From the NCBI GenBank assembly GCA_951406725.2, contig OX597841.1:23002001-23066000 (forward strand): a DNA stretch of 64,000 nucleotides. Direction: 5' to 3'. Below the pieces are notes generated by a model that searched no databases, was not told where the DNA came from, and saw only the letters and a program-made list of their open reading frames with translations. Below, in pieces: positions 7,913-57,706 of the stretch (positions are counted from its first letter, which is position 1; each line of letters opens with the position of its first letter). The position numbers and the translations under genes are program-made. The DNA comes from Octopus vulgaris. Taxonomy: Eukaryota.

Positions 7913-8197
7913 GAATATACCAATGAGAAAAGTGAAAGATTCCTTAATAAAAACAAAACAGGACATACGTCACACAACATTTATGATAACCAGCATGTTG
8001 AGAATGATACAGTCAATTACAATGTGTAGCAAAATTTTAATTTTATTTTGTCTTTGGTCAGTAAGGCTTATTTCCTATTTGTTTCTACATAGAAACCAAA
8101 GGAAATGTTTAATATTCCCTTCAAGCTTATGGTTTTGTGACCTGGACATCAATATTTTGAGACTGACCTATTTTCCCATTACATTTCAGAGATTCAG

Positions 8198-9632: not shown

Positions 9633-10658
9633 CTATGGGTTTTCTTCTGTGTGTATACATCTATGAGTACTTAAATATTTATTTTTTGAGAATGATTTAC
9701 CACAGATATCACAATGATATGGTTTTTCTCCTGTGTGAATAAGTCTATGCACAGTTAGGTGTGCACTTTGCGAGAATGGTTTACCACAAACATTGCACTG
9801 ATATGGTTTCTCTCCTGTATGAATACGTTTATGAGTAGCTAAAGCACTACTTCCAGGGAATGACTTACCACAGATATCACACTGATATGGCTTTTCTCCT
9901 GTGTGAATACGTCTATGTATAGTTAAATATGGATTTTTTGAGAAGGATTTACCACAGATATCACACTGATATGGTTTTTCTCCTGTGTGACTATTTCTAT
10001 GGACAGTCAAATGTGTACTTTGGGAGAACGATTTATCACAGATATCACAGTGATATGGCTTCTCTCCTGTATGAATACGTTTATGAATTACTAAGGGACT
10101 ACTTCCAGAGAATGATTTACCACAGATGTCACACTGATATGGTTTCTCTCCTGTGTGAATACGTTTATGTACAGTTAAGTGTGGACTTTTTGAAAAGGAT
10201 TTGCCACAAACATCACAGCGATATGGTTTCTCACCCGTATGAAAGTGTTTATGTTGAGTTAAGTCGCTACTTCCGGAGAAAGATTTACCACAGACATCAC
10301 AGTGATATGGTTTCTCTCCTGTATGAATGCGTTTGTGTTTCGTTAAGGTACTTCCCACAGAGAATGATTTACCACAGACATCACAGTGATACGGTTTCTC
10401 TCCTGTATGGACGCGTACATGAATAGTTAAATGAACTTTCTGACAGAATGATTTACCACAGACATCACAATGATATGGCCTATCTTCTGTCTGAATACAT
10501 TTATGATTATTGAGGTGATCTTTGCCAGAGTACGACCTACCACATATGTTGCACTGATAAGGTGTCTCACTCTTCTCTATCTTTATATTATCAGGAAAAC
10601 CAATAGGTTTAAATTCTGTTTTAAATTCAACTGTGTCCTCACATAATTTATTTTCCAT
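9633..10658 (-). CDS. C2H2 zinc-finger protein ZNF-A2 (11 fingers), close tandem paralog of A1
   Basis: 341-aa ORF, colinear with A1 finger by finger; flanks also homologous (about 1460-3945 vs 8010-11410). Confidence 0.95.
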
Positions 10659-16849: not shown

Positions 16850-17965
16850 TCAGAGATATGGTTTTTCTTCTGTATGCATACACTTGTGCATAGCGAATTG
16901 AGCAGACTTGGAGAATGATTTACCACAGATATTACAGTTATATGGCTTCTCTCCTGTATGGAGACGTTTATGAATAGCAAATTGACCAGATGTTGAGGAT
17001 GATTTACCACAGATATCACAGTGATACGGTCTCTCTCCAGAATGAATATATTTGTGAGTAGTTAGAGTATTTGAGTGAGAGAAAGATTTACCACAAATAT
17101 CACAGAGATATAGTTTCTCCCCTGTATGAATACGTTTGTGACTAGATAGTTCACTACTTCGGGAGAATGATTTACCACAGATATCACAGTGATATGGTTT
17201 CTCCCCTGTGTGAATGCGTTTATGAAGAGTTAAGGGACTACTTTCTGAGAATGATTTACCACAGATATCACATTGGTATGGCTTTTCTCCTGTGTGAATA
17301 CGTCTGTGTTCAGTTAAGTGTGTATTTTGTGAGAAGGATTTACCACAGATATCACACTGATATGGTTTATCCCCTGTATGAAAGCGTTTATGAAGAGTCA
17401 AATCACTACTCCCAGAAAAAGACTTATCGCAGACATCGCAGCGGAATGGTTTCTCTCCTGTATGAATGCGTTTGTGTTTAGTTAAGCTGCTTCCGACGGA
17501 GAAAGATTTACCACAGATATCACAGTGAAACGGTTTCTCTCCTGTATGAATACGTATGTGAACAATTAAGTTACTCCTTTGGGAGAATGATTTACCACAG
17601 ATATCGCAATGATGTGGTCTCTCTCCTGTGTGAATACGTTTGTGATTAGTGAGAGCCCCTTTATCAGAGAATGACTTACTACAGATATCACAGTGATATG
17701 GTTTCTCTCCAGTATGAATACGTACATGGACGATCAAGTAACTACTTTGAGAGAATGATTTACCACAGATATCGCAGTGATATGGTTTCTCTCCTGTGTG
17801 AATACGTTTGTGATTAGTGAGAAGCCATTTGTCAGAGAATGATTTACCACAGGTGTCACATTTATAAGGTGTTTTCTTTCTCTCTTTCTTTATATCATCA
17901 GGAAAATTAATAGTTTTACATTTTGTTTTAAATCCATCTTTCTTCTCACATAATGTATTTTCCAT
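16850..17965 (-). CDS. C2H2 zinc-finger protein ZNF-A3 (12 fingers)
   Basis: 371-aa ORF with TGEKPY linkers; N-terminus MENTLCE...FPDDIKKE related to A1/A2. Confidence 0.95.
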
Positions 17966-20431
17966 AATTTTTCTACTCTCATTAAAACATAGATCGTTAA
18001 TTCTTTTTTCTTTTCAGTTATATATCTATTCTTTTAACAAATGTTTCTACAACTATATTTTCATCAACTCTGATCTTTGTTGATATTTGAAGCAGCTGAA
18101 AAACTTCTTTGCCAATGTTTTCCAAGCTTAATGTATCATCTAAACATTCCAAGAAAAATGTTGATATTAACCTCTGTTCAAAAGAAATATTTTACTGTAA
18201 TTCATCACAGGTTTATATAATCTGGACCAGATCACTTCTGTAAAACATTTTCATCAACTCTGATCTTTGTTGATATTTGAAGCAGCTAAAAACTTCTTTG
18301 CCAATGTTTTCCAAGCTTAATGTTTCATCTAAACATTCCAAGAAAAATGTCGATATTAACCTCTGTTCAAAAGAAATATTTTACTGTAATTCATCACAGG
18401 TTTATATAATCTGGATCATATCACCTCTTGTAAACATTTTCTTTTAATCTTCAAAAGATGTTAAATACTGATGTTGTATCTCATGTAAACAATCCTTTCA
18501 TCACAAATGTCATTTGATAAGCTGAAATAAGAATGAAACAAAAGTATAAGACATGAAAAATATTTAAATAGTAGAGATGCAACGATATTACATTTTAGCG
18601 ATATTATTTTTTAATGGAATTAATGAACTTATCCAACGTTGTCTCCGGTGGCGTAGGAGTGGCTGTTTCCGGGTTCAGTCCCACTGTGTGGCACCTTGGG
18701 CAAGTGTCTTCTACTATAGCCTCGGGCCGACCAAAGCCTTGTGAGTGGATTTGGTAGACGGAAACTGGTATGTGTGTGTGTCTGTGTTTGTCGCCGCTCC
18801 CAACAACGCTTGACAACCGATGCTGGTGTGTTTACGTCCCCGTAACTTAGTGGTTCGGCAAAAGACACCGATAGAATAAGTACTAGGCTTACAAAGAATA
18901 AGTCCTGGGGGTCGATTTGCTCGACTAAAGGCAGTGCTCCAGCATGGCCACAGTCAAATGACTGAAACAAGTAAAAGTGAAAGAATCAGATAGGGATTTT
19001 AGAGATCTTGTGTAAATTAGTTTCAGGGTGGCTGTGTGGTAAGAAGCTTGCTTCCCAACCACATCGTTACGAGTTCAGTCCCACTGCATGGCACCTTGGG
19101 CAAGTATCTTCTATTATAGCCTGGGGCCTACCAAAATCTTCCAAGTGGATTTGGTAGACGGAAACCGAAAGAAGTCCGTCGTATATATATTTATATTACT
19201 ATATGTGTGTGTATGTCTTTGTGTTAATGTTTGTCCCCCACCATCGCTGGGCAACCAGCGTTGGCGTGTTTACGTCCCCTCGGCAAAAATTACCGATAGA
19301 ATAAGTATCAGGCTTTATAAAATAAGTCCTGGGGGTCAATTTGTTCGACTAAACCTTTCAAGGCTGGGTCCTAGCATGGCCGCAGTGCAAAATGACTGAA
19401 ACAAGTAAAAGATCGAAAAGAAAAAGAAAAAAACGCGTAACTTCGGTATAGGTACCGAATACATTTCAAGAAAGTGTTTTTTTTATATATATATATATAT
19501 ATATATGGGGTTAGGGTTAGAGGTGGGAGAAAAGGGTTTCTGTTATCTTCAGAAATGTAAACAAAGCCACTTACGGTACTTATACCGAAGGATCACCGGA
19601 AAAAAAAAAAAAGGCGATCTTTCGTCTCTAGTAGACCTTTCCGTCGATTTCCGTTAAAAATTTTTTTTTTTTTACATATGGGCTTTGCGGGAACTTTTGA
19701 AGTAATGAGAGCGAAAGAGACTAAGAGAAAGCGATTGTATGACGAGGGAAGTTCTTTTGAAGTTACCGTCCAGGGGAAGCATTGATGTACATGTGTGTGT
19801 GTGTGTGTGTGTTTGATGGGGTGTGGGAGACAGACAGTATGTTGTGTAAGTGAAGTGCTTCTGTTAGTGTGTGTGAAGAGACAGAGAGAGTAATGTGTCT
19901 CTTTCGCTCTCATTACTTCAAAAGTTCCCGCAAGCCCATATGTAAAAAAAATAAATTTTTTTTTACGGAAATCGAAGGAAAGGTCTACTAGAGACGAAAG
20001 ATCGCCTGTTAGGGTTAGGGTTAGGGGTGGGAGAAAAGGGTTTCTGTTATCTTCAGAAATGTAAACAAAGCCACTTGCGGTACTTATACCGAAGGATCGC
20101 CGAAAAACAAAAAAATCACTGATTTCAGGAATTGATTAGAAAACAGAATCAATATCGATGAATAAGGGACAACATTAAAGAATGTGTTCCGTCGAGGCAT
20201 TGGTGGTGGGGAGGAATCGGTTAATGCCGACGAAAACGTACAATATTAACGGGTATAAATAGTTTCATTATCGAATACTTACGGAGATGTTTTATAAAGG
20301 AGGAGAATGATGGATTCAACCGCATCAGGGATGTGGGAAATATCTGACGTAAGACAGGAATAACGAAGGAACGGAATCGGAGTGAGTTCTCTTGTGGCGC
20401 ATGCGTAGAAGTGACATTTCTGTTATACGCC

Positions 20432-21659: not shown

Positions 21660-22850
21660 TTCGAAGATACTGTACTTGATATGGGCGGTTGTGTCTTGCC
21701 GGTCTAGGGCCTACCTTCAACAAACCGGGAAGGCACAAACACTCTGTCTTCACATTTGCTGCGTGAGACATGTTTTAATGTTGACGAGCTTGCCGAGTAC
21801 ATAGCCGAAAATGAGCCAAAGCTCCTTCCAGAACACAAGTTCGCTTACAACTCATTTGTTAATTCAGTCCGGACCAAAGCTATGGGGAATTTTTTTCCTG
21901 GACGCTCCTGGGGGCACTGGGAAAACTTTTGTCAACAAATTAATATTGGCTGAGATTAGGCGAACACAAGGCATTGCCCTAGCTGTTGCATCATCTGGAA
22001 CTGCGGCTACTTTGTTGCCAGGCGGCAGGACAGCTCACTCCACTTGACTTAGCGAAGACTGAGACACCAACTTGCAACATCAGTAACAGCTCCGATCAGG
22101 CAGAAGTCTTCAGACGATGCAAGCTTATCGTTTGGGATGAATGCACGATGGCCCACAGAGGTGCTCTTGAGGCACTAGATAGATCTCTCAGAGACATCAA
22201 ACACTCTTCAGCTCCCATGGGAGGCATAACACTTCTTTCAGGGGACTTCCGACAAACACTTCCCGTTATTCCCAAAGGGACTAGAGCTGATGCAGTAAGT
22301 GCGTGTCTTAAGTCATCCACGTTGTGGCCACTGGTGAAGACTCTCAACTTCACACCAATATGCGTGCTCATATGCGACGTAATATCACATTAGCAGCATT
22401 TTCTCACACCCTCCTTGCACTTGGCGATGGCAAAATACCAGGGGATGAAAATGGTAATATTGCCATCGATTCCATTTGTACCATTGTTAAAACACCTTCT
22501 GACCTCAGAGATGCAGTGTTCCCAGATCTACAAGCTAATTATCAGAATATGGATTGGATTGGCCAAAGGGCTATTCTGGCCGCGAGGAATAAAACTGTTC
22601 ACCATATTAATGATGAAATGCTAAAACTCATTCCTGGGGATGTCTATGTATATAAGTCTATCGATACAACTCCTGACCCAGAGGACGTCATCAACTATCC
22701 AATACAGGTACTCAATTCCTTTGAGCCCCCGGACTACTACCACACTTTCTCAAACTTAAAGTTGGTGCCCCTATAATGCTCATTAGAAATTTGGTTCCCC
22801 CAAAACAATGCAATGGCACACGTTTGATCGTTAAGTCCTTATCTCCCACC
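21660..22850 (+). mobile_element. Helitron RepHel PIF1-type helicase fragment, frameshifted
   Basis: Motifs FLDAPGGTGKTF, VASSGTAATLLPGGRTAHS, IVWDECTM, GDFRQTLPVI, RAILAARN spread over several frames. Confidence 0.9.
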
Positions 22851-32879: not shown

Positions 32880-33149
32880 TGACATGCGCATACATGCATA
32901 CACTCCTCAACACACACACACTCATACACACACACATACACACACACACACTCATACAAACACACACACACACACGCCCATTTCTTTAAATAAAAAACCA
33001 CAGCGACTGTTGTCCGTCAGGTTTTCACGTTGTTTCAACGAACTCGGAGGAGGACCCTGCTATCGAGAGTATTCGAACCCCGCATGACATTCCTGAGACC
33101 AAAAAGACTTCAGGCTGAGATTGAAACCCTATCATTGGCCCAGGTAAAT
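32880..33149 (+). promoter_or_regulatory. Putative promoter/non-coding exon 1 of the 1796-aa gene
   Basis: ATGCGCAT motif, CpG-richer stretch, donor-like CAG|GTAAAT near 33143. Confidence 0.35.
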
Positions 33150-33419
33150 ATTTCATTGATGACTATTTTAATTAACAGACAACTTTAGTAACTTTATTTA
33201 CGTCGTTAACGATTCATTAGTACTTTTGAAACTTCACCGAGTCGTGTGAGGTGATGTCTGTGAGGGCGCTTGGCTTTCCTAACGCCTTAGCTTCGCCATC
33301 AACCGCGGTAATTCTGCGAGCTTGGCTTGTCTCAGGAGATTCCATTAAACCTTGTGGTGTGTGACCTGTTGAAGTATTTGATGCTACAGTCGGTCTTTCT
33401 TCCCCACAAATGCCATGGT

Positions 33420-33847
33420 GGCGATCTTTCGTCTCTAGTAGACCTTTCCGTCGATTTCCGTAAAAATTTTTTTTTTTTACATATGGGCTTGCGGGAACTT
33501 TTGAAGTAATATACATACATATACACATACACCGAGTAAAAAATTTCAGTTATCTCTTTCTTTCACACATTACTCTCTCTGTCTCTTCACACACACTAAC
33601 AGAAGCACTTCACTTACACAACATACTGTCTGTCTCCCACACCCCATCAAACACACACACACACACATGTACATCAATGCTTCCCATGGACGGTAACTTC
33701 AAAAGAACTTCCCTCGTCATACAATTGCTTTCTCTTAGTCTCTTTCGCTCTCATTACTTCAAAAGTTCCCGCAAGCCCATATGTAAAAAAAAAAATATTT
33801 TTTTACGGAAATCGACGGAAAGGTCTACTAGAAACGAAAGGTTGCCC
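33420..33847. mobile_element. MITE with TIR GGCGATCTTTCGTCTCTAGTAGACC; copies 19613-20007 and partial 5475-5790
   Basis: Inverted termini of about 45 bp; internal sequence shared among copies. Confidence 0.75.
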
Positions 33848-36568
33848 AAATGGTTTCAATACAGTTTTAGCGGAAAGATTTGGAAGAATTAGAAGAAAGT
33901 TCGGTACTACTTTAAATACAGAGGTACCGACGCATCTACCTAACTCTAACCCTAACGAGTGAGCACTATAAAAACATCGTGGTACTCCTAGCGAACAGTG
34001 GTCCCGGTGCGCGCACAAGCGTACTCGCGCTAGCTAGTCATGACTAGTCGATCCTAAAACAACACCCTAGCAAAGTAAATAAAACAAAAATAGAAAGTAA
34101 ATAACACAAAACCCAAAGTAAGAAGGATCGACTACTCATGACTAGCTAGTGCGGATGCGCGAGTACGCGCACCGGGACCACTGTTCGCTAGTAGTACCAA
34201 ACATCGTTACGTCGATGCATCGTAACCTCGATACTTCTAGCGAACAGTGGTCTCGGTGCGCGCACTCGCGCTAGCTAGTCGTAAGTAGTCGATCCTACGA
34301 CTTTTTAACCCTCACCCTAACCCTAACCTTTGTTTATAAAAATAATTCATTTACTTAGTTTAAAAATTATTTAATTTTCTTTGATATGGATTCAGACTTG
34401 AAATACAAACATACTCGCAAGTCGTTGTAGGATCGACTACTTACGACTAGCTAGCGCGAGTGCGCGCACCGGGACCACTGTTCGCTAGTAGTACCCGGGA
34501 CGTTAAACTTACAAATTACAATTTTGTTTTCAATTTTGTTTACAATAATGTTTTCTTTTGACACATTCTACCAGTATACGAAGTTTCAAATTGTTTAGTT
34601 AACTAGAAAATTCCGTCCATCAAAAGGAAAAGATCCTAAATTTTCTTTCGTGTAAATAAATGTCTATGTTATCTTATGAATTCGCCAACAAAATCTTGAG
34701 ATCTATTTTTTTCATTCGCAAAATCTTCAAGTACTTATTTAAGAGTGGTCCCGGTGCGCGCATCCGTGCTAGCTAGTCGATCCTTTGTGTTTTTGTGTTT
34801 TATTTACTTTGTTTTTAAAAAATTATTTATTTTGTGTTTTATTGACTTTGCTAGGTGGTCATTGTAGGATCGACTAGTTTCTTTTGCCGAACTGCTAAGT
34901 TACGGGGACGTAAACACACCAGCATCGGTTGTCAAGCGATGTTGGGGGGGGGGGACAAACGCAGATACACAAACAAATACATATATATATATGTGATCTC
35001 TTTCAACATGTGATCTCTTAAGCACCACCAGCTCAAATATTTTCTCCTCTGTCTTTCCTCTTTGGGATCTTTCCTTCTCCTTGTTTCCGACGAAGAGCTC
35101 CGCTCGAAACGTTAAACCCTCCTTCCCTTCTTTCCTGAGCGTCAATAATACTTTAATTGTTCCACGTCCTGCGTTGCTGTGTTTTTTTCTCCTTTTTTTC
35201 TCTTTTGTTCTGTGTTTTCTTGTTTGGATTAACCATATATATATATATATACATACATATATACGATGGGCTTCTTTTAGTTTCCGCCTACCAAATTCAC
35301 TCACAAGGCTTTGGTCGGCCCGAGGCTATAGTAGAAGACACTTGCCCAAGGTGCCACTGAACCCGGAACCGTGAGGTTGGTAAACAAGCTACTTACCACA
35401 CAGTCACTCCTACGTTCACTATCGTGTATTTAATCTCTTGAGGTGCGCACACTCGCCGTTCCATGCATTATTTTAGCTATTTTAGGCTACGTTCAGATCA
35501 TGAGACTAGCAGTAGACCAGTGACATGCGAATATTTTACATGCATAATACCATGTTTTGAGTTGTACAATATGCAACCTATATTTTTAAAGGTTTATTGA
35601 GCAGAATAACTCGTGCATATCATATTATGATAAATAGCTTCACCTTGTTCGTTTTCATAAACTGGTAGACGTAAATGCACGACGCTGTGTTATTGTAACA
35701 GTGAACGTAAATGGACGCGAGCTCGTTGCACTTTTGTGTTTGTATGACCTCATTAGATAAAAAAAAAAACAAAAAACGGAGCAGTGTCTTGAATGCTTCG
35801 GTAATACCGACATCAAGGGGTTAATGAAGTTTGAATATTATTGTAGAAGTGTGTTTAACCCTTTCGATTCCAAACTGGCTCTGGCTCTGTAGTACAAATG
35901 TCTTGTTTTCAGAAATTTTGAATTAAAATCTTCCTCCAAACCTTAGTCACAGTTTATGTTCTTAACAATATTTTACTAAATTCTTTGTTATATTTAAAAC
36001 TAATTGAAAGAAACACAAAACATCTCAACAGAAATATGGTAACAAAAGGGTTAAGAAGAAAAATAATCAGCAGAAGACATGAGAGAAGGAGACCTCAGTG
36101 TGGTTACTCTATATGCTAGAAATAATAGCCTAAATTTCCTTTAATCCACACCCTTTCAACTGCTTCTAATGTCCATCTACCCAAATGTAGAGGTGTTTTT
36201 AACTCTTTCGATACCAACCCGGCTGAAACCACCTCTTGCTCTGTAGTATAAATGTCTAGCTTTTGTAAGTTCTGAATTAAAATCTTCCCCACCAAACCTT
36301 AATCCCAATTTGTGTTCCTAAAACCAGCTTAATGATAACTAAGTTGTTTTACTAAATTCTTTGTTATATTTAAAGTAACTGAAAGAAACACAGAGCATCT
36401 CAAAATAAAAACAGTAACGAAATGGTTGAATGTTAATTTGACAACCTGATATACGGACAGAAACGCACGTATTTTGGTTGTGTGTTTAAAACAATGAAGT
36501 AAACATCTTTAAAATTTTAAATTTTCACAGAGCTGTATGTTTTCTTTATATTTCATTATAGATTCACT

Positions 36569-39500
36569 ATGGAAGGCAATACAGGAAATACTTCAAGAAT
36601 ACTTAAGCCTCCGAAAACAAGTTTTTGTGATGAAGGAGGAGTCTACAATCAAAAGTGCAGATATTGGAGAGATGACATTTTAGAGACAGAAACCTCACAG
36701 AACCAATCTTTGTGTCAGCCAACAACGAAACAAGACAGACATAAAGAAGACCGTGAAAAGTGTAAAACAATTGGAAGACGAGTTGTTTTGGACAAATGCA
36801 TGTATTATACAAGATTCAATGCGTATGAAGACAAAATCAATATGTTGGTAAATTCTCGGGAAAAAACATGTGCCATTTTAAAAAGTGTAGGGTTGGATAA
36901 AAGCAGTTTTCTAAAAGATTTTACACGGAGAATTGAAATTTTGCAGAAAAACGTTAAGAAATGTGACTACAATCAAGATTTTATTATTTTTGGACAACTT
37001 GAATGTTTTCTGGAACAATATGTAAAGAAAAATGTTTTGCAACTCAAACACAGAAGCATTGAGGCGCCAAAAATAACTGACAAATTCCGACCTCTTTGTC
37101 CAGTTGTGACCAGAGAAGCAATGTTCACTGAATCTGATGAAGGCTTCAGCAACATTATATCCAATATTGTCGTTATACAGGGTGGAGTTGTGACATATTC
37201 CCGCCATTATATGACAGTGTGTTGTGTGAAAATGAACGGTAACAGAAATGAAGTCCACTGCCCATCTTCTGTCACCGATTTTACCAGAATCGGTAAAGAC
37301 ACTGTACTGGCCACCCTTCCATTTAGGAAAATTATTCTAATTATTAGTCCCTCAAGTCTTAAAATTCAAACGCTTCAATTAGGCTTTTACAGGGTTTCGT
37401 ACTTAGAACATTTTACAGTTATAGGTGTAGAAATGTTCGGTAAGACTGTAAATTTTATTGATTGGGAAGATAATAAAATCACAAAGCAATTCCTTGTCAA
37501 AGAGCCACCATCAGCTATTGTTGTAGGTCCACAGAATAAGCTGTTGCTATCATTTTCAAATACCAACATAGTTGCTTGTTACAACCTTGATGGCCAGCAG
37601 TTATTTGAAGTGTGTACCCATTCTCTGGAACTTCCAACCAACATAACTGCGTACCAAAACCATTTTTATGTCCTCCAGGGACAAATTATTTATAAGCTTT
37701 CAGGCACTGGTGGTATGTCAAAGAAAGAAATTGGCGTGAAAGGTCGGAATATCTCTGTTGACTCGAGTACAATTTTCTTGGTTGATTATTTTGGTATTCC
37801 TCATGCTGTTAGAACAACTGAAGACTTTTGGCCCAGGTTGTCTTACTCCAACCAGCTACATACTCCCACTTTCTACAACCAGATTTATGTTGAGGATTAT
37901 TATGATATTACAAATATTCTACCTATGTCAACATCTTCTATGTTAATAATCTCCAGGAATAAGAAAGCCATATTATTCACTGACATTGGAGGAAAAATTC
38001 GCCAGAATTATTCATCTTTTCCCTTCGTTCCTTCTGTCTTTTGTAGATTGAACTCAAAAGCATTTTTGATTTTTTACTCTGAAATTAAGGCACTTCAGTG
38101 TGTCACATGTCCTGAACTAACCAAAGGCCCTTTAATTAAGGTCCACTCTGAATACATTAAAATATGTCATATTGTATCCAATAAGTGTTTAGCTGTGACC
38201 ACCACTGAAAACAAAGTGGAAGTACATATCCTGTTGATTAAGGAGGGCCAAGTTGACATCATGGAAAGAATTTCTCTGGGTCATGAAAATGTCACCATTG
38301 CTGCAACTCCTATTAATTTTGTGGTCGTAGATGGAAAGAAAAATAAACTGGTATTTTATTCCACATGTGGTGAAGAACTTTTTGAAAAATCCCTTCCGTG
38401 CTACGGCTACCCTCATCACATCTACTCTGACAATGTTTATTACTATGTTGTGTTCAAGAGAGAGTCTGTTGTAATATGTTACAATATATTTGGTGAAATT
38501 AAATGGCAGTGGAAACTACCCCTAACTGCCCCCTCTCACGTTACTGTCTCCCAAGGAACAGTTTATGTAGCGGACCTTGCACTCAATAGGGTCCTGCTTT
38601 TCAAATGTCACGACGGGTCCAGCTGTAGTTTACGCATCAAAAATCCTTATATCAGAAATCTAAATATACAGCTCAAAGAAAAGGAAGAGAAACTTCTCAT
38701 TGCCAAAATATGTCATCTCCCAAACGGACAGTTGGTGGTGTCCGACATAAATAATGATTGCTTGTTTTACATTTCTAAAGAAGGAGACATTGTGTCTAGA
38801 TTATCTCTGCCATCCGCAGCTACAGATATATGCCGATGGGACTGTAATCAAATAGGTATCACATTGCCCCTGGAGAGACAATTAAGGGTTATTGAAAACT
38901 TATCAAAGGCAGTTAGAACTGTATCATTTACCCACCCTTATGTACGAGTATGTAAGCTGGGTAACGGTCAAATGGTTTCTTATTGTGATAAACCATCTCA
39001 TTTAGATATTTTAAACATTAAAAATTATAATCAAGTCGAAATCATTCATAGAATTAATATCCCTTTTGTAGTGAAATCATTATCAATAGACAAGGAAACA
39101 CTAAAGCTATTGATTGTTACTAGGAAAAAAGTATTTCAGTACAACGGTAGTGGTGGTAGTGGTAGTAACAGTAAGATGGTCCCTAGTGTTTTACTGTCGC
39201 ATATGAAACCCTCCCTCAATCTCTTTGGTGGATGTATTGATAAATTGTTTGTTTATCTAATTGACAACAGCCGTATATTTGCTATGACTGATCATAACCT
39301 GGTGGTGAGAGATCACATTACTAATAAACTGGTAAACATGTACGCCGACCTGGTTGATGTATTTTCCAGAAACATCTGTGTCGGTGAAATGTTGTCTTCG
39401 ACTTTATATCTCGAGGATCTGACAGTTTCTGAAGAAGCTAGACATATTGATGTTGTCCCTCCAGGTCTTCGAAACAGGGAACCGATGAGAATTGACAATT

Positions 39501-41959
39501 CAATCATTACTGAAAATAACCTGATTGCAGTATATGACAGTAATAATAAAAGCATTATGATATTCACATTTGACGGTCAACTTCTGGATTCTGTCAAACT
39601 GAATGTCAGCTACTTAATCGATATGTGTCAATGGCAGTCAAACACATTGGCTATTATGACTGGTGGTTCTGATAACGATGTTGATGATGATGATGACAAC
39701 GATGATAGTGGTGACGATGATGACAATGATGATGAAGATGATGACAATGATGGTGATGATGATGATGATGATGCTGTTGAACACCAACTGTTGACATTAA
39801 AAGTGGAATTTCCACTGTCATTGGTAAATTACCAGACAAGCAGTATATACTGCTGCATTGCTTCTTTGTCAAACAATCAACTGGTGCGTAGTAAATGGCG
39901 AGACGAATGTGATTTGTATGTTGTCGATATTGACGAAATACATTTGACGGTCAATGAAAATAAACAAATAGACATACCTGAGATATTAACAAGATACAGT
40001 CATGGGGGTAGTAATTATATTAATGAGATCTATAATGTTGTAATTAATGCTAACGATGTCATCATTGTCCATAATAAAAGATTCATCATTTTCTTCAACA
40101 GTGACGGTCGGTATTTACATTCAGTTAGAACCTACCGAGATTATTTTGGGTTTTATAACTTGACACTCGATGACGGGTTTTTGTTCATTCATGGTTGGTG
40201 GGAAAGATATTTTAGTGACTACAGTGAATATAAAAACATTGTGTGTTTGACACAGAATGGGGAATACAACAGAATATTTTTGAATAAAAGAATTTATAAA
40301 GATAAGGTAGATTTCTCCTGTATAAACTGTAAAGGGCCGAGGTTTATTGGAAGCTACAGGTATCATGATAGTAACAAATTGTATGTTGAAGGTTTGTTTA
40401 AGGCTAATCGTGAAAGGTTCAGCGTCTGTCGTTTACAGACAGACAATTGCCCTGTTCAAGTAAAAGATCTTGATATCTCTGACGATGGACAAATAGTTGT
40501 ATGTGAAAAAGCCAATAATGGAAATGTTAAAATATTTGATAGAAACAGGCAATTGCTATGTCACAGAGATATTGGAAGTTTAGTTGGTGGTGTGTGCTTT
40601 ACAGGAGAAAGAGACATAATTATCACAGTTCCTGACAGACAAGAAATATTTCAACTGAAGCAACAAGATTTGGTGAATCATAAAGTTTGGGAAAGTCAAG
40701 TACCTTATGGTGTAATATGGAGAAAAGTGGGAAATATTTACTGGTGTGTACATATTAACTTGAGTGAATGTCATAGTTTAAAGATCGATGGGGACCAATT
40801 GGAGGTTCTAGAATCTATATCATTATCAAAGCTTGATTCCAGTCTTCGTTTCCCTTCCATTTCATCTCAGACGAACAATGAAATGTACAGTAGTGAATTA
40901 ATTAAATTGAAATACAGGGGAGAAGATGGAGAAGAAAGGGGTAGATCAGGTGAAATAGATGGTGAAGGTCGATTTATGGTTAGATGTGGTAATTACATAG
41001 CGGAGAGTATGTCGGGGTTTGATGAAATATCAGTGAGGAAACTGCCATATAGAACAGCAATGGTCCCGCTTTCCATTCCTTCCTTCGAGGAACCTGTTGA
41101 TTATGATATTGAGGATGCCAAGGACTACAACAGTAAACTAATTAAGTTAGATGAGAAGGTGAGTGTGTTTATGTTTAGAAACACTGTCACGGTAATCACC
41201 GCAACAGGTGACATACTGCAACATAAACAACTACCACAACCTCAACCACCACTAGACATATGTTGGTGGACAGATGAATGTTTCATAGTTGCCTTCGGTG
41301 AACAGCTGATGTTCTTTGAAAGGGATCTCTGTCGTTTAAAAACCATCAATACTGAGAAATACTACAACAGGATTTATAAACACAGCGACAATCAACTTGT
41401 GTGTGGTGGTCATGAGATTGGAGACAGAACTAAAGAGGGAAGATGCTGTTACAACTACTATGTAGATATAGTTGATATTGATGGTGGGACATGTAAATAT
41501 AATTGTGGGGTGTGTTCTGGAGTGGATGTGCTGAAGAAAGAGCGAGGGGTATTGGTGTGTGATATAGCAGTGACATCTGGTGGGGATATTGTTATTGTGA
41601 AATGGAAGGATTGGCAGAGGTGGAGTGGTGGTCACTATTTAATCTGTTGGTACAGGGATCAGTTGTTGGTCAGGAGTATAAAACTACAGCCAGGTTTTGA
41701 TAGGGATTACATATACAGACCATGTCTAAACATACATGGCGAATATGTTTATATAACAGACATATATAACAATATTTACCAGATACCTGGAGATATTCCA
41801 CACCAAACAGCTGAAAGTATAAGACAATATTTATTCCTTGATGGTCAAGATAATGAAGTCTTCACAGTTCTTGGGCTTGGTATTTCAGACAATTCCTTCT
41901 TCGTTTTTGGAATTATTCCAGGACGTCAGTCCTTTGCTTTCTTCCATTATGACAAATAA
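36569..41959 (+). CDS. 1796-aa single-coding-exon protein: degenerate B-box-like/coiled-coil N-terminus followed by about 6 tandem NHL-like beta-propeller domains (TRIM-derived, no RING seen)
   Basis: 5.4-kb open frame in AT-rich DNA; acceptor ttcattatag 7 nt before the ATG; AATAAA overlaps the stop; blade motifs such as ICHLPNGQLVVSDINNDCLFY and LDISDDGQIVVCEKANNGNVKIFD. The coding call is firm; the domain calls are inferred by eye. Confidence 0.85.
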   Translation: MEGNTGNTSRILKPPKTSFCDEGGVYNQKCRYWRDDILETETSQNQSLCQPTTKQDRHKEDREKCKTIGRRVVLDKCMYYTRFNAYEDKINMLVNSREKTCAILKSVGLDKSSFLKDFTRRIEILQKNVKKCDYNQDFIIFGQLECFLEQYVKKNVLQLKHRSIEAPKITDKFRPLCPVVTREAMFTESDEGFSNIISNIVVIQGGVVTYSRHYMTVCCVKMNGNRNEVHCPSSVTDFTRIGKDTVLATLPFRKIILIISPSSLKIQTLQLGFYRVSYLEHFTVIGVEMFGKTVNFIDWEDNKITKQFLVKEPPSAIVVGPQNKLLLSFSNTNIVACYNLDGQQLFEVCTHSLELPTNITAYQNHFYVLQGQIIYKLSGTGGMSKKEIGVKGRNISVDSSTIFLVDYFGIPHAVRTTEDFWPRLSYSNQLHTPTFYNQIYVEDYYDITNILPMSTSSMLIISRNKKAILFTDIGGKIRQNYSSFPFVPSVFCRLNSKAFLIFYSEIKALQCVTCPELTKGPLIKVHSEYIKICHIVSNKCLAVTTTENKVEVHILLIKEGQVDIMERISLGHENVTIAATPINFVVVDGKKNKLVFYSTCGEELFEKSLPCYGYPHHIYSDNVYYYVVFKRESVVICYNIFGEIKWQWKLPLTAPSHVTVSQGTVYVADLALNRVLLFKCHDGSSCSLRIKNPYIRNLNIQLKEKEEKLLIAKICHLPNGQLVVSDINNDCLFYISKEGDIVSRLSLPSAATDICRWDCNQIGITLPLERQLRVIENLSKAVRTVSFTHPYVRVCKLGNGQMVSYCDKPSHLDILNIKNYNQVEIIHRINIPFVVKSLSIDKETLKLLIVTRKKVFQYNGSGGSGSNSKMVPSVLLSHMKPSLNLFGGCIDKLFVYLIDNSRIFAMTDHNLVVRDHITNKLVNMYADLVDVFSRNICVGEMLSSTLYLEDLTVSEEARHIDVVPPGLRNREPMRIDNSIITENNLIAVYDSNNKSIMIFTFDGQLLDSVKLNVSYLIDMCQWQSNTLAIMTGGSDNDVDDDDDNDDSGDDDDNDDEDDDNDGDDDDDDAVEHQLLTLKVEFPLSLVNYQTSSIYCCIASLSNNQLVRSKWRDECDLYVVDIDEIHLTVNENKQIDIPEILTRYSHGGSNYINEIYNVVINANDVIIVHNKRFIIFFNSDGRYLHSVRTYRDYFGFYNLTLDDGFLFIHGWWERYFSDYSEYKNIVCLTQNGEYNRIFLNKRIYKDKVDFSCINCKGPRFIGSYRYHDSNKLYVEGLFKANRERFSVCRLQTDNCPVQVKDLDISDDGQIVVCEKANNGNVKIFDRNRQLLCHRDIGSLVGGVCFTGERDIIITVPDRQEIFQLKQQDLVNHKVWESQVPYGVIWRKVGNIYWCVHINLSECHSLKIDGDQLEVLESISLSKLDSSLRFPSISSQTNNEMYSSELIKLKYRGEDGEERGRSGEIDGEGRFMVRCGNYIAESMSGFDEISVRKLPYRTAMVPLSIPSFEEPVDYDIEDAKDYNSKLIKLDEKVSVFMFRNTVTVITATGDILQHKQLPQPQPPLDICWWTDECFIVAFGEQLMFFERDLCRLKTINTEKYYNRIYKHSDNQLVCGGHEIGDRTKEGRCCYNYYVDIVDIDGGTCKYNCGVCSGVDVLKKERGVLVCDIAVTSGGDIVIVKWKDWQRWSGGHYLICWYRDQLLVRSIKLQPGFDRDYIYRPCLNIHGEYVYITDIYNNIYQIPGDIPHQTAESIRQYLFLDGQDNEVFTVLGLGISDNSFFVFGIIPGRQSFAFFHYDK

Positions 41960-42920: not shown

Positions 42921-44252
42921 TCAAGATTTCACAACAGAATGGTTTTTTTCCCCTGTATGTTTTTTGCTGTGCCTTTTTAACTTAGCCTTACAGGCAAAAG
43001 AAACCCCACACATTTCACAGTGGAAGGGTCTTTCCCCCGTATGTTCTCTTTTATGAATGACCAGAATAGAATTATTACTGAATGATTTTCCACATATTTC
43101 ACAGTGGCAGGGTTTCTCTCCCGTGTGAACCCTTTTATGTCTGGTTAAATCACTTTTATTCACAAACGACTTCTCACATATGTCACAATGATGAGCTTTC
43201 TCGTCAGCGTGTATTTTTTTGTGTGTCAATAACGCACTGTTATTTGTAAAAGTTTTTCCACATATCTCGCAGTGGAACGGCCTTTCTCCTGTATGAATCG
43301 TTTTGTGATCAACAAGCCGAGAATTACAAAAGAATGATTTTCCGCAGGTTTCACATTGATAAGGCTTTTCTCCCGTGTGTACTCTTATGTGTTTCGTCAA
43401 TTCGCTGTTAACTGCGAAGTGTTTCCCACACGTTTCACAGCGGAAAGGTTTTTCCCCGGTGTGGGTCGTTTTGTGATACGCAAGACGCGAACGAACAGAG
43501 AAGAACTTACCACAGATTTCACAACGATAGGGTTTCTCCCCAGTGTGGACCCTGTTGTGACAGACAAGATGTGAAATCTGAACGAAGGATTTTCCGCAAA
43601 TTCCACAGCGATACGGCTTTTCCGCAGTATGTGTCCGTTTGTGATTTATAAGACTAGAATTAACCGAGAAGGATTTTCCACAAATTTCACAGCGGTAAGG
43701 TTTCTCCTGAGTGTGGATTTTTTGGTGCCTTGCTAAGATGCCGTTAGTTGCAAAATATTTACCACAGGCGTTGCAGTGATAGGGTTTTTCCCCAGTGTGA
43801 GTACGTACGTGAGTAACCAGACTCGATTTCTGACTAAAATATTTTCCGCATATTTCACACTGAAACGGCTTTTCCCCAGAGTGTACTCTCTTGTGACTTG
43901 TTAGGTAACTATTATCGGAAAATGATTTTCCGCATATTTCACAGTGGTAAGGTTTATTTCCACTGTGGATACGCACATGTATAACAAGATGGCTATTCTG
44001 GCTGAATGATTTTCCACACTGTTCACAACGAAACGGTTTTTCTCCTGTGTGTACCCTTTTGTGTTGCGTTAAATTACTGGATTTGCCAAATAATTTCCCG
44101 CAAATTTCACAGCGAAATTTTGTGTCCAATGAATTTCGTTCAGTAGATACTTCACTGCCTAAAATCTTATCGTTACTATAATCCTGTGTCACTTTATCCA
44201 AATTGGCCAAAACAGTCGAGTCGGGAATATCCAAGGGTTTAACGTCTTCCAT
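42921..44252 (-). CDS. C2H2 zinc-finger protein ZNF-B1 (14 fingers)
   Basis: ORF track starts at GTG 44258; first ATG at 44252 (MEDVKPLDIP); 14 intact fingers. Confidence 0.93.
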   Translation of the reverse strand: MEDVKPLDIPDSTVLANLDKVTQDYSNDKILGSEVSTERNSLDTKFRCEICGKLFGKSSNLTQHKRVHTGEKPFRCEQCGKSFSQNSHLVIHVRIHSGNKPYHCEICGKSFSDNSYLTSHKRVHSGEKPFQCEICGKYFSQKSSLVTHVRTHTGEKPYHCNACGKYFATNGILARHQKIHTQEKPYRCEICGKSFSVNSSLINHKRTHTAEKPYRCGICGKSFVQISHLVCHNRVHTGEKPYRCEICGKFFSVRSRLAYHKTTHTGEKPFRCETCGKHFAVNSELTKHIRVHTGEKPYQCETCGKSFFCNSRLVDHKTIHTGERPFHCEICGKTFTNNSALLTHKKIHADEKAHHCDICEKSFVNKSDLTRHKRVHTGEKPCHCEICGKSFSNNSILVIHKREHTGERPFHCEMCGVSFACKAKLKRHSKKHTGEKNHSVVKS

Positions 44253-46099
44253 ATTCACACCAGATGTAATTTTCTTGCAACCCGTGCCAGCGCGGAAAAC
44301 GGACGTTAAACGATGATGATGATGATGATGATTGTGAATCTCTTGGATAAACTAAGCAATATGTGTATAGTTTCTAATTAATCCTATAATACTCGTAGCT
44401 GACTGCAACGGCTGTAGAAATGATTGTGGTTTTAGATTTGCAAGTCAGCTACAAAAGGATTACCATCAAAGATATTCACTCATTATTTAGCCATTAGAAT
44501 CCATATTCTTGTAACTAATTCAAGATGCAACGAAAGTTGGAAACAAAATGAAATATTCAATCATCGCGATGATGAAGCTGGCTCTTTGTTATCAGTAAAC
44601 ATAAATGTTTACCTTACAACGAGCCAATTACCAAGGGTTTAACGTCTTCCATATTCATACCAGATGTAATTTTCTTGGATATTGTGATGCCCTCGGGTAA
44701 ACTAAGCAATATGTATATAATTTTACGGCGAGCTGGCAGAAACGTTAGCACGCCGGGCGAAATGCGTAGCCGTATTTCGTCTGCCGTTACGTTCTGAGTT
44801 CAAATTCCGCCGAGGTCAACTTTGCCTTTCATCCTTTCGGGGTCGATATAATCGATTTAATCCGTTTGTCTGTCCTTGTTTGTCCCCTCTGTGTTTAGCC
44901 CCTTGTGGGTAGTAAAGAAACAAATATGTATATAATTTTTACTTACGCCCACAATACTCGTAGCTGAGTGTATCCTTGTAGCAGATATATAATTGTAGAC
45001 AAAACTACTTTTTCTTTTTATATCTATGTTATGAAATATGGTTATGATCGAATAGGTACTGTACAGTTTAAAAAAAATATATCGAGTCCGTCTATATCAG
45101 TGGTTTTCAACCAGGGTTCCGCCAGTACAGTCCAGGGGTTCCGCAAGAAGTTACAAAAATGCTAAAATCGAAAGTAATTTTTAATTCTCCTGTGCAGATA
45201 TGTGTGCATAAGACAATTAAATTATTGCACAGGGGTTCCTCGAGCCAGTGAAATGTTTCCTTGGGGTTCCGCTCCAGCAAAAAGGTTGAAAAGCACTGCT
45301 CTAAACAATACGCAGGTCTGTGTGTGTGTGTGGTGCTATGAAATCACAATTGATCACTATTGCAGTGGCACTAGAAATGATTGAGGTTTTAAATTTGCAA
45401 GTCAACTACAAACGGAAGAAATATTATCAAAGTTATTCAACCAGTATTGTTGAGGTCGACTTTGCCTTTCATCCTTTCGGGGTCGATAAATTAAGTACCA
45501 GTTACGCACTGGGGTCGATGTAATCGACTTAATCCGTTTGTCTGTCCTTGTTTGTCCCCTCTGTGTTTAGCCCCTTGTGGGTAATAAAGAAAGTTATTCA
45601 ACCAGTATTGTTGAGGTCGACTTTACCTTTCATCCTTTCGGGGTCGATAAATTAAGTACCAGTTAAGCACTGGGGTCGATGTAATTGACTTAATCTGTTT
45701 GTCTGTCCTTGTTTGTCCCCTCTGTGTTTAGCCCCTTGTGGGTAATAAAAAAACAGTTATTCAAACCATTATTTGGCCCTTGAAGTCCATATTCTTGTAA
45801 ACAATTCCGGATGTAACGAAAGCTGGTAACAAAATTAAATATTTCATCATCGCGGTGACGGAGCCCCGAGTCTGAACCATTTTAGCTGGTTCTATGTTAT
45901 CGGCAAAAATTACTGTTTACCTTACAACAAGATAATTACATTTGCTCAAGTAATTATAAATAAAGTGCGCGGTGTAGTGGATAAAATTACCCTTGCATAA
46001 ATCATACCGGAGGCATCAGTTTCATGTACATAATTCGTACAGAAACATTTTTAATATCAAATTTTAAGTTTTATCACGACTTCAAGTGTCGGAGTCAAC

Positions 46100-51842: not shown

Positions 51843-53138
51843 TCATGATTTACTGTGGAGTGATTTTCCTCGAGTGTGTATTTTCCTGTGTCTAGCAAAA
51901 TGACCACTACTTCGGAAGGATTTCCCACAGATGTCACAGCTGTAAGGTTTCTCGCCCGTATGAATCCGTTCATGCCTGGTTAAATCGCCTTTCGTTACAA
52001 AACACTTCCCACACACTTCACAACGATACGGTCTCTCCCCCGTGTGTACCCTTACGTGACTGGCCAGATTAGTATTATTACTGAACGATTTACCACAAAT
52101 TTCACAGTGATAGGGCTTTTCCCCCGTATGGGTCCTTTTATGATTAACAAGCCTGGATTTAAATAAGAACGATTTTCCACATAGATCACAATGCACAGGT
52201 TTTTCCGCATTGTGGATCTTTTTGTGTCTTGTTAAATCACCTTTATCCACAAAAGATTTTCCGCATATTTCACAGTGGAAATTTCGTTCTCCGATGTGTC
52301 TTGCTTTATGGCGTAAAAGACTAGAATTTAAAGCGAACCATTTACCACAGATTTCACAATGATGTGTCTTTTCCTTTGTCGAATCACCTTTGTTATGGTG
52401 CGTTGTTTCATGATGTACAAGTCTGGATTTGAGAGAGAAAGATTTACCACAGATTTCGCAGTGGTACGGCGTTTCCCCAGTGTGAGTCCGAATGTGACCA
52501 ACCAGGCTTGATTTCTGACTGAAGCTTTTTTCACATACTTCGCACTGAAATGGCTTTTCCCCCGTGTGAATTCTCCTGTGACTTTTTAAATAACTACTAA
52601 GAGCGAACGACCTTCCACATATCTCACAGTGGAAAGGTTTACTTCCAGAGTGAATACGTTTATGAATAACAAGATGGTAATTGTAAGAGAAAGATTTGCC
52701 GCAAATTTCACACGGAAACGGTTTTTCCCCCGTGTGTACTCGCTTATGTTGTGTTAAATTACTGTTTTTTATAAATGATTTGCCGCAGATTTCACAGCGG
52801 TAAGGTTTCTTTCCCGTGTGGATACGTTTATGAAGAGCAAGATGAGACGTCCGAGAGAACGATATTCCGCATAATTCACAAAGATACGGTTTTTCCCCAG
52901 TGTGCACTTTCTCGTGTTCTTTTAAATAACGGGCTTTGCCGAACGATTTCCCGCAGATTTCACAGCAAACACTTTTGTCCAATGATTTTTCTTCACCATG
53001 CATTTCAAAACCGAAAATTCTCTCATTACTATCACAAGTCTCTGTTACTGTATGCAAATTAATAAAAACAGTGGAGTTGGGAATGGCCAAGGGTTTAACG
53101 TCCTCCATATTCATTCCAAGGGTACTGTTCAAATTCAT
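51843..53138 (-). CDS. C2H2 zinc-finger protein ZNF-B2 (13 fingers)
   Basis: 431-aa ORF; shares the MEDVKPLxIPxSTV N-terminus with B1/B3. Confidence 0.93.
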
Positions 53139-53720
53139 TACAGTTCCATTATTATCTCAGATATTGTCAGTCCTTTTCAACAAGTGGGTAAAATAAGTAA
53201 TTTGTATACTGTTTTTACTTACCCCTAGTATACTCACTGCCGACATGTGTCCATGTAGCATATATATATATATTGTTTTATTTATATTTCCTGAGCGCCA
53301 TACTAATACAATTGTTTGTTTGTATTCCACCTGCCTTCGTCTTTTGTTTATTTCCGTAAACCTGCCTTCGTCTTTTGTCTATTTTCATAAAGCTTCCCGT
53401 TATATATATATATATATATATACCTTCGAAACACACACTGAGTCGAACCAGGGGCAGCTGATGAAGGGGAATATTCCTTGTATTGTTTGTCCTGTACTCT
53501 GTTTTTCCGTTGTTAAAAAAAGTCCGTTTCCTTGTTTGATTTTATGTTTCGTTTCTCGTTGTGTTCTACGTTTATTTGTGGTGTCCTGTACTCATATATG
53601 CATGTATATATACATATAGATGTAGGTGTGTACATATATGTATGCATATGTTTTATTTATTAAATTGTTATTATATGATTGAACGCCACGCGTTGTTTTC
53701 TTCTTCTCCAAGTAAGTTTG

Positions 53721-55265: not shown

Positions 55266-56479
55266 GTAATAGAATATTTTACAATCTCAAAGTGATTGCA
55301 CTGGAAGCTCTGAGGGTACCGTTCACTCCCCGTCTCGAAGTAACGACAAAACTAAAGATTCAAACAGCAAAATCAAAAGAGGACCTTAAATAAAATATCA
55401 AACTAACAGTTGGTCATTGGTAAGGGCGTTAACTCCATGTTGGCATCATTTTGTATTGAAAACTGAAATATTTCAGATTTGTTAACGACAGCAGAGAGGC
55501 TCTCATATACTTATTTTCTTGGATAATGTTTTCAGAATTAACGGTTGGTTGGAGGCGACTGCAAGAGGAAACTGATATTATTAAATATCAAATGTATTAA
55601 AGTTTGTTAGAGACTTTTCACTTAAGTTTACTTGGATGATATTTTTCGAGGGTAAAAATTATCCATTACACCGCATCCGATGTCAAAGGTAAACTGATTC
55701 TTTGCTGATTCCTTCCAACCAACTTTAAATGTTCCATACTCGGATCTTCCATCACCTCAAGGACTAAATATTTCCTTTATTACCCACCTTCGCTGCGTCG
55801 TGAATTGTTAACGAGAATATGGACTTCAATGGCTAAATACTGGTTGAATAACTTTGATATTATTTCTTCCCTTTGTAGTTTGACTTGGCAAATCTAAAAC
55901 CAAGATCGTCTCTTATTTCAGAACGTAGACTTTTTTAAAAAAAGGGGACGTTTATCTAGAATAATATATGTGCTACATGGACATATAAAAAGTGGTGAGC
56001 AAATGTGAATTCATCGTAATACATACAGACATACACATACATGCGTATTTTCCAGACAGACTCAACATACTTTTAGATTATAAAACAAATATTAAGCCTT
56101 AACCATATTTCATAACGTAGACTTTAAAAAAAAAAGGGACCTTTATCAACAATAATATATGTGCTGCATGGACATAGTGAACAAGGGGTACACTGTGGGC
56201 AAGTAGAACACGTTGCGTATTTTACCCAGTTGTGAAAAGAGACTCAAAATATCCCAGAGAAGGACATATAGAATGGATATGGACTTCAATGGCTAAATAC
56301 TGGTTGAATAACTTTGATATTATTTCTTCCCTTTGTAGTTGACTTGCAAATCTAAAACCAAGATCGTTTTTATTGCAACAACATTGGTGAGCAAATGTGA
56401 ATTCATCGTAATACATACAGACACAGTTTTACCCAGTTGTGAAAAGAGACTCGAAATATCGCAGAGAAGGACATATAGA

Positions 56480-57706
56480 ATGGATATAGAGGACGTTAAA
56501 CCCTTGGTTATTCCCAATTCGACTGTTTTGACCAATTTGGATTCAGTAGCAGAGACTTCTAATAGTGATGAGAAAACTTTAGGCGTGCAAGTATTTACTA
56601 CTGAAGAAAAATCATTGGACAAAACTGTTCGATGTGAAATCTGCGGGAAATCATTCGGCAAAGTCCGTTATTTAAAAGAACATAAGAAAATACACTCTGG
56701 AAAGAAACCTTGCCGTGATGAAACATCTGCTAAATCACTCTCTCGAACATCTCTTGCTCTTCGTAAACCTACTCACACGGGAAATAAATCTTACCACTGT
56801 GAAATCTGCGGGAAATCATTTGTGAAAAACAGTAATTTAACACAACACAAGCGAGTACACACGGGGGAAAAACCGTTTACCTGTGAAATATGTGGGGAAG
56901 CTTTCTCTCATAATTATCGTCTGGCTATCCATAGGCATAGTCACACGGGGAGTAAACCTTTTCAGTGTGAAATATGTGGTAAATCTTTTGCTCTTAATAG
57001 TTATTTGAAAAGTCACAGGAGAATTCAGTGTGAGATATGTGAGAAATATTTTGGTCAGAAATCGAGTCTGGTCACTCATATACGTATTCACACTGGGGAA
57101 AGACCCTACCACTGTGACGTCTGTGGCAAATCGTTCTCTTTCAATTCCAGTCTTTTACGCCATAAAGCAATGCACTCCGGAGAAAGGCCGTTTCATTGTG
57201 AAATGTGCGGAAAATCTTTTGTGGATAACGGTGATTTAACGAGACACAAGAAAATCCACAATGAGGAGAAACCCGAGCAGTGCGAAATCTGTGGAAAATC
57301 TTTCCCAATTAAATCCAGGCTTGTTAACCATAAACGGACACATACTGGGGAAAAGCCATATCACTGTGAAATTTGTGGGAAATTTTTCGTCCAGATTTCA
57401 CATCTTGTCAATCACGTAAGACTCCACACAGGCGAAAGACCGTATAATTGTGAAATATGCGAGAAGTCTTTTGTGACTAAAGGGGCTTTGATAAGGCACA
57501 GAAGGGTCCACACGGGGGAGAAGCCCTACAACTGTGATATTTGTGGGAAATCATTCACTAATAATTCTAATCTTGTTGATCACCTCAGAATCCATACTGG
57601 GGAAAAGCCCTATCATTGTGATATATGTATGAAGTCCTTCAGGAGTAGTGGTCATTTTGCCAAACACAAAAAAATACACGCTGGAAAAAAAATCGCTTCA
57701 CAGTGA
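56480..57706 (+). CDS. C2H2 zinc-finger protein ZNF-B3 (13 finger modules, 2 degenerate)
   Basis: First ATG at 56480 ([12 protein letters not shown]) matches the paralog starts; finger 2 has lost its Cys/His ligands; in-frame deletion of the HTGEKPF linker after finger 5. Confidence 0.92.

Follow-up and report, generated by a model that had tools for sequence, protein, structure and literature searches.

A 5.4-kb open reading frame (ORF) lying among C2H2 zinc finger (ZNF) genes of Octopus vulgaris raises the question of what a protein built from about six tandem TRIM/NHL-like propellers, the architecture predicted for it from the letters of the DNA, might be and do. The original prediction saw in it a RING-less descendant of molluscan TRIM-like proteins whose ligand-binding propeller had been multiplied into a scaffold recognizing RNA or proteins. 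We analyzed the gene in a window of 64,000 nucleotides (nt), the whole stretch of DNA under study, together with its relatives in the genome and in protein databases. With somewhat more confidence than doubt, we regard these genes as an octopod-specific, TRIM-NHL-derived family of variable intracellular receptors, whose ligand, conflict and output we infer.

Gene structure and N-terminal region

The frame is open in the window from 36521 to 41959 (+) with its first ATG at 36569, and the resulting ORF, 36569-41959 (+), encodes 1796 amino acids (aa); boundaries and length are exactly those predicted for an intact 5.4-kb ORF. Its placement within a ZNF cluster was also correct, as C2H2-ZNF ORFs occur on both flanks. 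Six of these were seen in the window (2111-3148, 9633-10682, 16850-18013, 42921-44351, 51843-53156 on the reverse strand and 56339-57706 on the forward strand), two of the six were checked in Pfam, and those at 2111-3148 and 9633-10682 are near-duplicates. The stretch 22312-22776 resembles a fragment of a PIF1/Helitron helicase, and 7743-8432 resembles the end of a LINE reverse transcriptase; in Pfam neither had a match at an E value of 0.01.

In contigs from four of four sequencing runs, belonging to three studies, a first exon ending at 33143 is joined to the acceptor at 36561; that these runs are RNA is a guess, and expression cannot be ranked from the depth of contigs. In all four, contigs begin at 36560 with 78 to 153 unplaced nt ahead, the last 30 of which correspond to 33112-33141, exactly in two runs and with four differences in the two others. 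Another run, far larger and of unknown kind, continues across the boundary at 36560 without a break. Contigs cover the ORF largely and in pieces, with none spanning it in full. The first-exon and donor region is 70 to 79% conserved at five places in the paralog array, and the acceptor, ...TTATAG/ATTCACTATG, is common to many paralogs. The first exon is interrupted by in-frame stops and lacks an in-frame ATG, so that a single exon encodes the whole protein, as had been proposed. An upstream coding exon with a RING or B-box was rejected because the spliced first exon is closed in frame, and no such added exon was found in the spliced contigs of the four runs guessed to be RNA.

Two further observations concern the transcript. 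An upstream ORF of 34 codons, formed by joining 33084-33143 to 36562-36606, overlaps the main ATG out of frame and could damp translation. In run X1, one contig (depth, 3.9) lacks 7 nt at 36862, possibly a frameshift allele or an error.

The absence of a RING was borne out by Pfam, which detected none in the window protein (E ≤ 1) or in any of 21 relatives (21/21; E ≤ 0.01); no B-box was detected in the window protein or the 21 relatives either. A Cys/His remnant of a B-box had also been claimed near the N terminus. This was rejected, as its positions are not conserved: C49 occurs in none of 49 other family rows and C65 in 2 of the 49, and even the 97%-identical O. sinensis ortholog has Tyr in place of C49. 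The segment that follows, aa 71-156, is modeled as helical and may be a coiled-coil remnant or an adaptor domain; no look-alike for it in the Atlas scored 0.9 or more. We found no signal or transmembrane segment, as the N terminus is not hydrophobic and the maximum 19-residue hydropathy is 1.6. The positions of all features are collected in Table 1.

Table 1. Features of the window gene (window coordinates)
Feature	Position	Strand	Remarks
First exon, noncoding for the main frame	32990..33143	+	5' end approximate; donor CAG/GTAAAT at 33143/33144
GT-AG intron, 3418 nt	33144..36561	+	Contig junctions
Variable, low-similarity N-terminal segment, aa 1-69, basic-rich	36569..36775	+	No conserved Cys/His pattern
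Four predicted helices, aa 71-156	36779..37036	+	AlphaFold2 pLDDT 50-73
Propeller B1, six blades	37112..37813	+	M0 omega 0.33 (purifying selection); paralogs carry one or other of two interchangeable types
Propeller B2, six blades, NHL-like	37868..38605	+	Brat NHL Z 21.1, rmsd 3.5, 249 aligned
Propeller B3	38663..39433	+	Five blades modeled; sixth inferred from sequence, low-confidence construct end
Propeller B4, six blades, NHL-like	39443..40390	+	Main diversifying-selection site, top face
Asp-rich insertion, B4 top-face (b-c) loop	39671..39772	+	Window gene and O. sinensis ortholog only, 2 of 17 rows
Block B5, incomplete propeller	40460..41041	+	Three blades and a possible fourth after a low-confidence loop
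Propeller B6, six blades, to stop codon	41048..41959	+	Second diversification site

Propeller architecture

AlphaFold2, run on two halves with 44-row alignments (mean pLDDT, 72 to 73), predicts the helices at aa 71-156 and then four-stranded blades in six propeller blocks. These are placed as in the original prediction, with limits at aa 182-415 (B1), 434-679 (B2), 699 to about 955 (B3), 959-1274 (B4), 1298 to about 1491 (B5) and 1494-1795 (B6). By hand assignment from DSSP, which left blade 3 of B6 ambiguous, six blades were counted in each of B1, B2, B4 and B6; five are modeled in B3, and B5 has three and possibly a fourth. The pTM was 0.67 for the B4-B6 construct versus 0.39 for the helix-B3 construct. 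In profile comparisons, 9 of 15 block pairs were homologous at E ≤ 4e-4, the best being B3 with B6 (3e-10), and the N-terminal region matched none of the blocks (E, 0.17 to 0.72). Thus, AlphaFold2, VIA-align and profiles all support a repeated NHL-type fold, but the count of six propellers has to be qualified, since B5 is incomplete, with three to four blades.

The best structural matches were TRIM-NHL domains (Brat, TRIM2 and Mei-P26), with VIA-align Z scores of 20 to 23: B4 matched Brat NHL at Z 23.0 (rmsd 3.3; 252 aligned) and both TRIM2 and Mei-P26 at 22.6, and B2 matched NHL-2 at 20.1. Other six-bladed propellers score close behind (PAL, 22.1; PknD, 21.0), so the fold alone gives no function. 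A family profile of the C-terminal half matched the TRIM71 and Brat NHL domains at E values of 2e-5 to 2e-4. With the window protein as a single sequence, Pfam gave weak matches only (NHL at E 0.019, below the cutoff) and a PDB search gave none. The best Foldseek matches were proteins with several propellers per chain, namely, DDB1, IFT-A, Utp21, Apaf-1 and LRP4, but at TM scores of only 0.16 to 0.27 and about 10% identity, and single propellers fit NHL better. A viral origin was rejected because the BFVD matches were generic multipropeller proteins (TM ≤ 0.24; 6 to 15% identity).

Taxonomic range and descent

All 52 matches in a search with the full-length protein came from O. vulgaris, O. 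sinensis or O. bimaculoides, and nearly all of these records were titled uncharacterized or hypothetical. In O. sinensis, the window gene has LOC118768466 as its ortholog (97%; 1801 aa). Searching 1.84 billion proteins with a profile yielded 34 matches, 22 of them at E ≤ 1e-10; among these is a full-length protein of 1913 aa from Argonauta hians. Octopus and Argonauta were the only genera in which the protein-database searches turned up full-length relatives. No squid, cuttlefish or Nautilus homolog appeared in these searches, which had length and word limits and covered the names of 26 of the 34 HMMER matches; the other eight, P0060 apart, are mostly fragments or weak matches.

Among 20 of the 34 profile matches that were looked up by name, the best named non-cephalopod match was a bivalve B-box/propeller protein (E 2e-6), KAK3588083.1 of Potamilus streckersoni (P0071), with which B3 shares the motifs LPNG.LV..D..N... 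and LP..P.D.C (hhalign E 8e-5). In the Atlas, the helix-B1 region of the ortholog adjoins molluscan NHL and TRIM2-like clusters at 0.91 to 0.94. Profile, Atlas and motif matches thus agree with the proposed descent from molluscan TRIM-like proteins, and the octopod family is built from NHL-type propellers and probably derives from molluscan TRIM-like genes. With the TRIM-NHL proteins (Brat, Mei-P26, TRIM2/3, TRIM71/LIN-41 and NHL-2) it shares a six-bladed NHL-type propeller after a helical segment. Unlike them, it has about six propellers rather than one, exists in about 100 copies, and has top faces that are under diversifying selection and not uniformly basic. Because it lacks RING and B-box, we do not count it as a TRIM-NHL member. 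The molluscan "TRIM2/3-like" proteins have one propeller and often a B-box, whereas in the octopod family the B-box is missing and the propeller is multiplied.

No full-length ortholog has been described beyond the uncharacterized or hypothetical class, to which the records of all named relatives belong. Full-text searches of the literature turned up no description of the family and no occurrence of six LOC identifiers, though supplementary orthogroup tables or subscription papers may list it unnamed. The main texts of PMC9068888, PMC9795677, PMC9635652 and PMC13218726 do not mention propellers. Thus, the 6-fold NHL array seems to be an architecture without a record that we could find. That the family has apparently been overlooked seems due both to these record titles and to Pfam, which gives no match for 17 of 21 relatives even at an E value of 0.01 and, for the remaining four, only weak matches below the curated cutoff.

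Family size, arrays and mosaicism

A search of the O. vulgaris genome with B3 gave at least 172 matches (150 of 175 candidates scored), and a search with B1 found largely the same loci. From the B3 list we fetched 100 loci, setting aside a dozen or so matches that were short or lay at an edge; 98 of the 100 cover at least 1600 of the 1796 aa. The window gene is one of about 100 copies, with at least 101 near-full-length loci. Of 101 copies, the window gene included, 81 are on chromosome C28, 7 on C27, 7 on C31 and one each on six other contigs. Fifty of the C28 copies lie within 6.46-11.06 Mb, and another 10 copies occupy 181 kb at C28:21.88-22.06 Mb, where adjacent duplication units of about 16 kb are 96 to 97% identical. 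These units, together with the first-exon donor recognizable at five places, indicate amplification by whole-gene tandem duplication and not by retroposition.

This distribution bears on the possibility that the variable face tracks endogenous partners, such as products of the neighboring C2H2-ZNF genes or germline or self-recognition factors. The chromosome that carries 81 of the 101 loci is also that of the ZNF cluster, ZNF ORFs flank both the window gene and one array, and the basic N-terminal stretches could allow nuclear entry. However, no ZNF ORF lies between the members of the 10-copy array, meaning that the two gene types were not co-duplicated there, and their co-location may only reflect a duplication-prone chromosome. 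We think such partners unlikely.

The same loci could instead be passengers or selfish DNA, that is, a gene amplified by transposons or segmental duplication under relaxed constraint, with no diversified function. One intact frame from the helical region to the C terminus is present in 33 of the 100 fetched loci (34 genes with that of the window), so 67 are not intact as assembled, and similarity between the window gene and other loci ends about 170 nt upstream and about 100 nt downstream of the ORF. On the other hand, the 16-kb duplication units extend far upstream, and no transposase, reverse transcriptase or integrase domain was found by Pfam in the window protein or its relatives. With a first exon and intron present, a donor conserved in paralogs and no transposable element domain, retrocopy or transposable element status is disfavored. 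Many broken copies have one or two 1-bp indels and no stops. In total, 132 of 163 frameshifting indels are of 1 bp, and 30 of the 163 fall in runs of at least four bases, which make up 8% of coding bases. These frameshifts may be assembly errors, and the true number of intact genes is accordingly uncertain. Trees show dispersed older copies with one-to-one orthologs kept across Octopus species, and recent main arrays on C28. Between the window gene and its O. sinensis ortholog, only 9 of 321 B4 positions and 5 of 287 B6 positions have changed, which marks the gene as an older, stable member.

The paralogs are mosaics. Neighboring sites were more compatible than in 2000 of 2000 permutations, and steps in identity between paralogs coincide with domain borders. 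For example, L016 and L020 are 91 to 99% identical in B1-B3 and 96 to 99% in most of B5, and 58 to 86% identical in B4 and B6. B1 exists as two types that are about 75% alike, and B5 is nearly identical among recent paralogs. Identities in B4 and B6 correlate at a rho of 0.92, versus only 0.13 to 0.30 for B1 with B2-B6.

Several loci depart from the common structure. At C28:21.88-22.03 Mb, the last approximately 80 codons (aa 1714-1796) are duplicated just downstream of several copies. A subfamily on C31, C4 and C28:8.15 Mb (L092, L093, L097, L098, L100, L101, L103, L104 and L106) matches only from aa 170 and has no helical segment in the large exon; as L097 and L103 have a splice acceptor just before the linker, a separate exon may supply its N terminus. 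Gene models P0067 and P0086 join copies of this type to MIB2-like ankyrin-RING exons, and P0050 joins such a copy to a 94-aa segment about 8.5 kb upstream. No MIB2-like exons were found 20 to 40 kb upstream of seven C31/C4 copies, and the source copy may lie outside these; a RING fusion, if true, would restore an E3 ligase. Models P0009 and P0017, which fuse family members to C2H2 zinc fingers or a DUF4371-containing protein, are probably annotation joins. The most divergent member (L096, C2:66.49-66.50 Mb; about 31% identity) is single copy and a candidate for the ancestral locus; O. sinensis and O. bimaculoides each carry a close one-to-one ortholog of it.

Diversifying selection on the predicted top face of B4 and, less firmly, B6

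Selection was analyzed on 34 intact coding sequences, with pairwise omega (dN/dS) taken from the 28 closer copies. Omega among paralogs was 0.62 overall, and by block it was 0.32 for B1, about 0.5 for B2 and B3, 0.66 for B5 and 0.81 to 0.83 for B4 and B6. The codon models were our own GY94 implementation with a tree for each block and scaled fixed branch lengths. Removing columns rich in gaps, along with the copy that diverged most, kept 218 of 321 codons in B4 and 188 of 287 in B6, and the most variable, indel-rich loops were outside the tests.

Comparison of M8 with M8a gave 2dL values of 314 in B4 (9% of sites, with an omega of about 5), 142 in B6, and 10 to 26 in B2, B3 and B5; B1 and the helices showed no positive selection in these site models. 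With variable synonymous rates, 2dL was 70 in B4, 22 in B6 and 0.3 to 5.8 in the other blocks. Analyzed in thirds on their own trees, B4 had a signal in each (15, 18 and 28) and B6 in only one of three (9.6, 1.6 and 3.7). In 30 simulations without selection but with heavy recombination (block-tree mosaics), the maximum was 13.6 with variable and 48.8 with constant synonymous rates. Thus, only B4 and B6 stand out, and the nominal positive selection in B2, B3 and B5, being inside the recombination null, was dropped. The six propellers are accordingly not equivalent: selection singles out B4 and, to a lesser degree, B6, and in B5 the propeller is incomplete.

On the predicted structure, the d-a and b-c loops, which make up the NHL top surface, or the strand ends next to them hold all of the selected sites (19 of 19 in B4 and 11 of 11 in B6). 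Top-face residues include, for example, E971/R974/D976, E1153/Y1155, H1208/W1210 and K1246/D1248/S1250. We set the first top-face rule when the sites were already known; under a symmetric rule, enrichment on the top face had p values of 1.9e-7 (B4) and 5.2e-4 (B6). Tree-free omega for B4 was 1.41 (1.01 to 1.95) on the top face, 1.85 (1.30 to 2.62) in the loops only and 0.44 to 0.47 on the bottom face; for B6 it was 0.81 to 0.92 on the top face and 1.2 to 1.3 on the bottom, with an interval spanning 1. Overall, diversifying selection is firm for B4 and partial for B6, the signal lies among paralogs, and purifying selection acts on B1 and on the strands of B2 and B3. For the passenger explanation, an overall omega of 0.62 is fairly high, but this purifying selection and the confinement of omega above 1 to one structural face argue against it, and we consider it very improbable.

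Passages of PMC4015489 describe the top surface as the NHL ligand surface and the RNA-binding face of Brat, and an electropositive top surface as the mark of RNA-binding TRIM-NHL domains. The octopod proteins could be diversified, sequence-specific RNA-binding regulators like Brat, Mei-P26 or TRIM71, with several propellers reading long host mRNA or transposon RNA. In favor of this, NHL domains that bind RNA rank first among the structural matches, aromatic residues are frequent on the B4 top face (22%), and the top face of B3 is mildly basic (family median, +5), so that B3 could bind nucleic acid. However, in this crude counting of residues, the B4 value ranges from -4 to +10, the B6 face is acidic (family median, -4), and those of B1 and B5 are close to neutral; the window gene has a poly-Asp loop on the B4 top face, and the close Z scores of PAL and PknD come from propellers that do not bind RNA. 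The lack of a consistently basic character in the variable faces makes protein ligands appear likelier than RNA, and we judge RNA regulation to be improbable. Of the RNA- or protein-binding scaffold first proposed, the recognition role is supported, with selected sites on predicted top faces, and the RNA part is not favored, as the B4 and B6 top faces are not uniformly basic.

Discussion

Variable receptor families show a constant scaffold, variable domains, selection on the binding face, tandem arrays and domain exchange. Soluble intracellular recognition is the reading we draw for the octopod family from its constant scaffold, two coinherited variable domains, one-face selection, tandem arrays and domain exchange, and this evolutionary signature suggests an immune or conflict role. 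The family would have originated from a molluscan B-box/coiled-coil/propeller (TRIM-like) gene that lost its zinc-binding domains, after which the propeller was multiplied internally. B1-B3 and B5 would form a conserved scaffold kept interchangeable by gene conversion, and B4 and B6, inherited together, would form the specificity site, perhaps packing against each other about the partial B5. The repertoire would be generated by duplication in tandem and by exchange of domains. The most likely ligands would be foreign macromolecules that change rapidly, probably proteins made by pathogens living inside cells or by selfish elements. As there is no RING or catalytic domain, output would pass through partners bound by the helical N terminus or the conserved propellers.

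NLRs, TRIM5 and fish finTRIM B30.2 proteins, and the nematode F-box and MATH-BTB families combine arrays, birth-death evolution, conversion and selection on ligand surfaces. The octopod family has no homology to them, and NACHT, RING, F-box and BTB domains were not detected in it. A tentative extension of our reading, which we would put below an even chance, is that octopods encode in the germ line a repertoire of intracellular pattern receptors, derived from a TRIM-like NHL domain and consisting of about 100 six-propeller proteins in which B4 and B6 form a two-faced variable binding site, shuffled by gene conversion onto scaffold propellers that are interchangeable. If true, the family would be a functional counterpart of NLR repertoires, built on a fold that is not known to serve in this way.

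Coleoid protocadherins, C2H2-ZNFs and S-crystallins form lineage-specific, multimegabase arrays that arose by whole-gene duplication, according to passages of PMC9068888. Like these expansions, the octopod family lies in clustered arrays; the words "propeller" and "TRIM" are absent from the main text of that paper. Large clustered expansions of this kind are central to cephalopod genomics, and the family described here is of comparable size. As the map of selection points to particular residues and to two domains, variable intracellular recognition in the octopus becomes directly testable.
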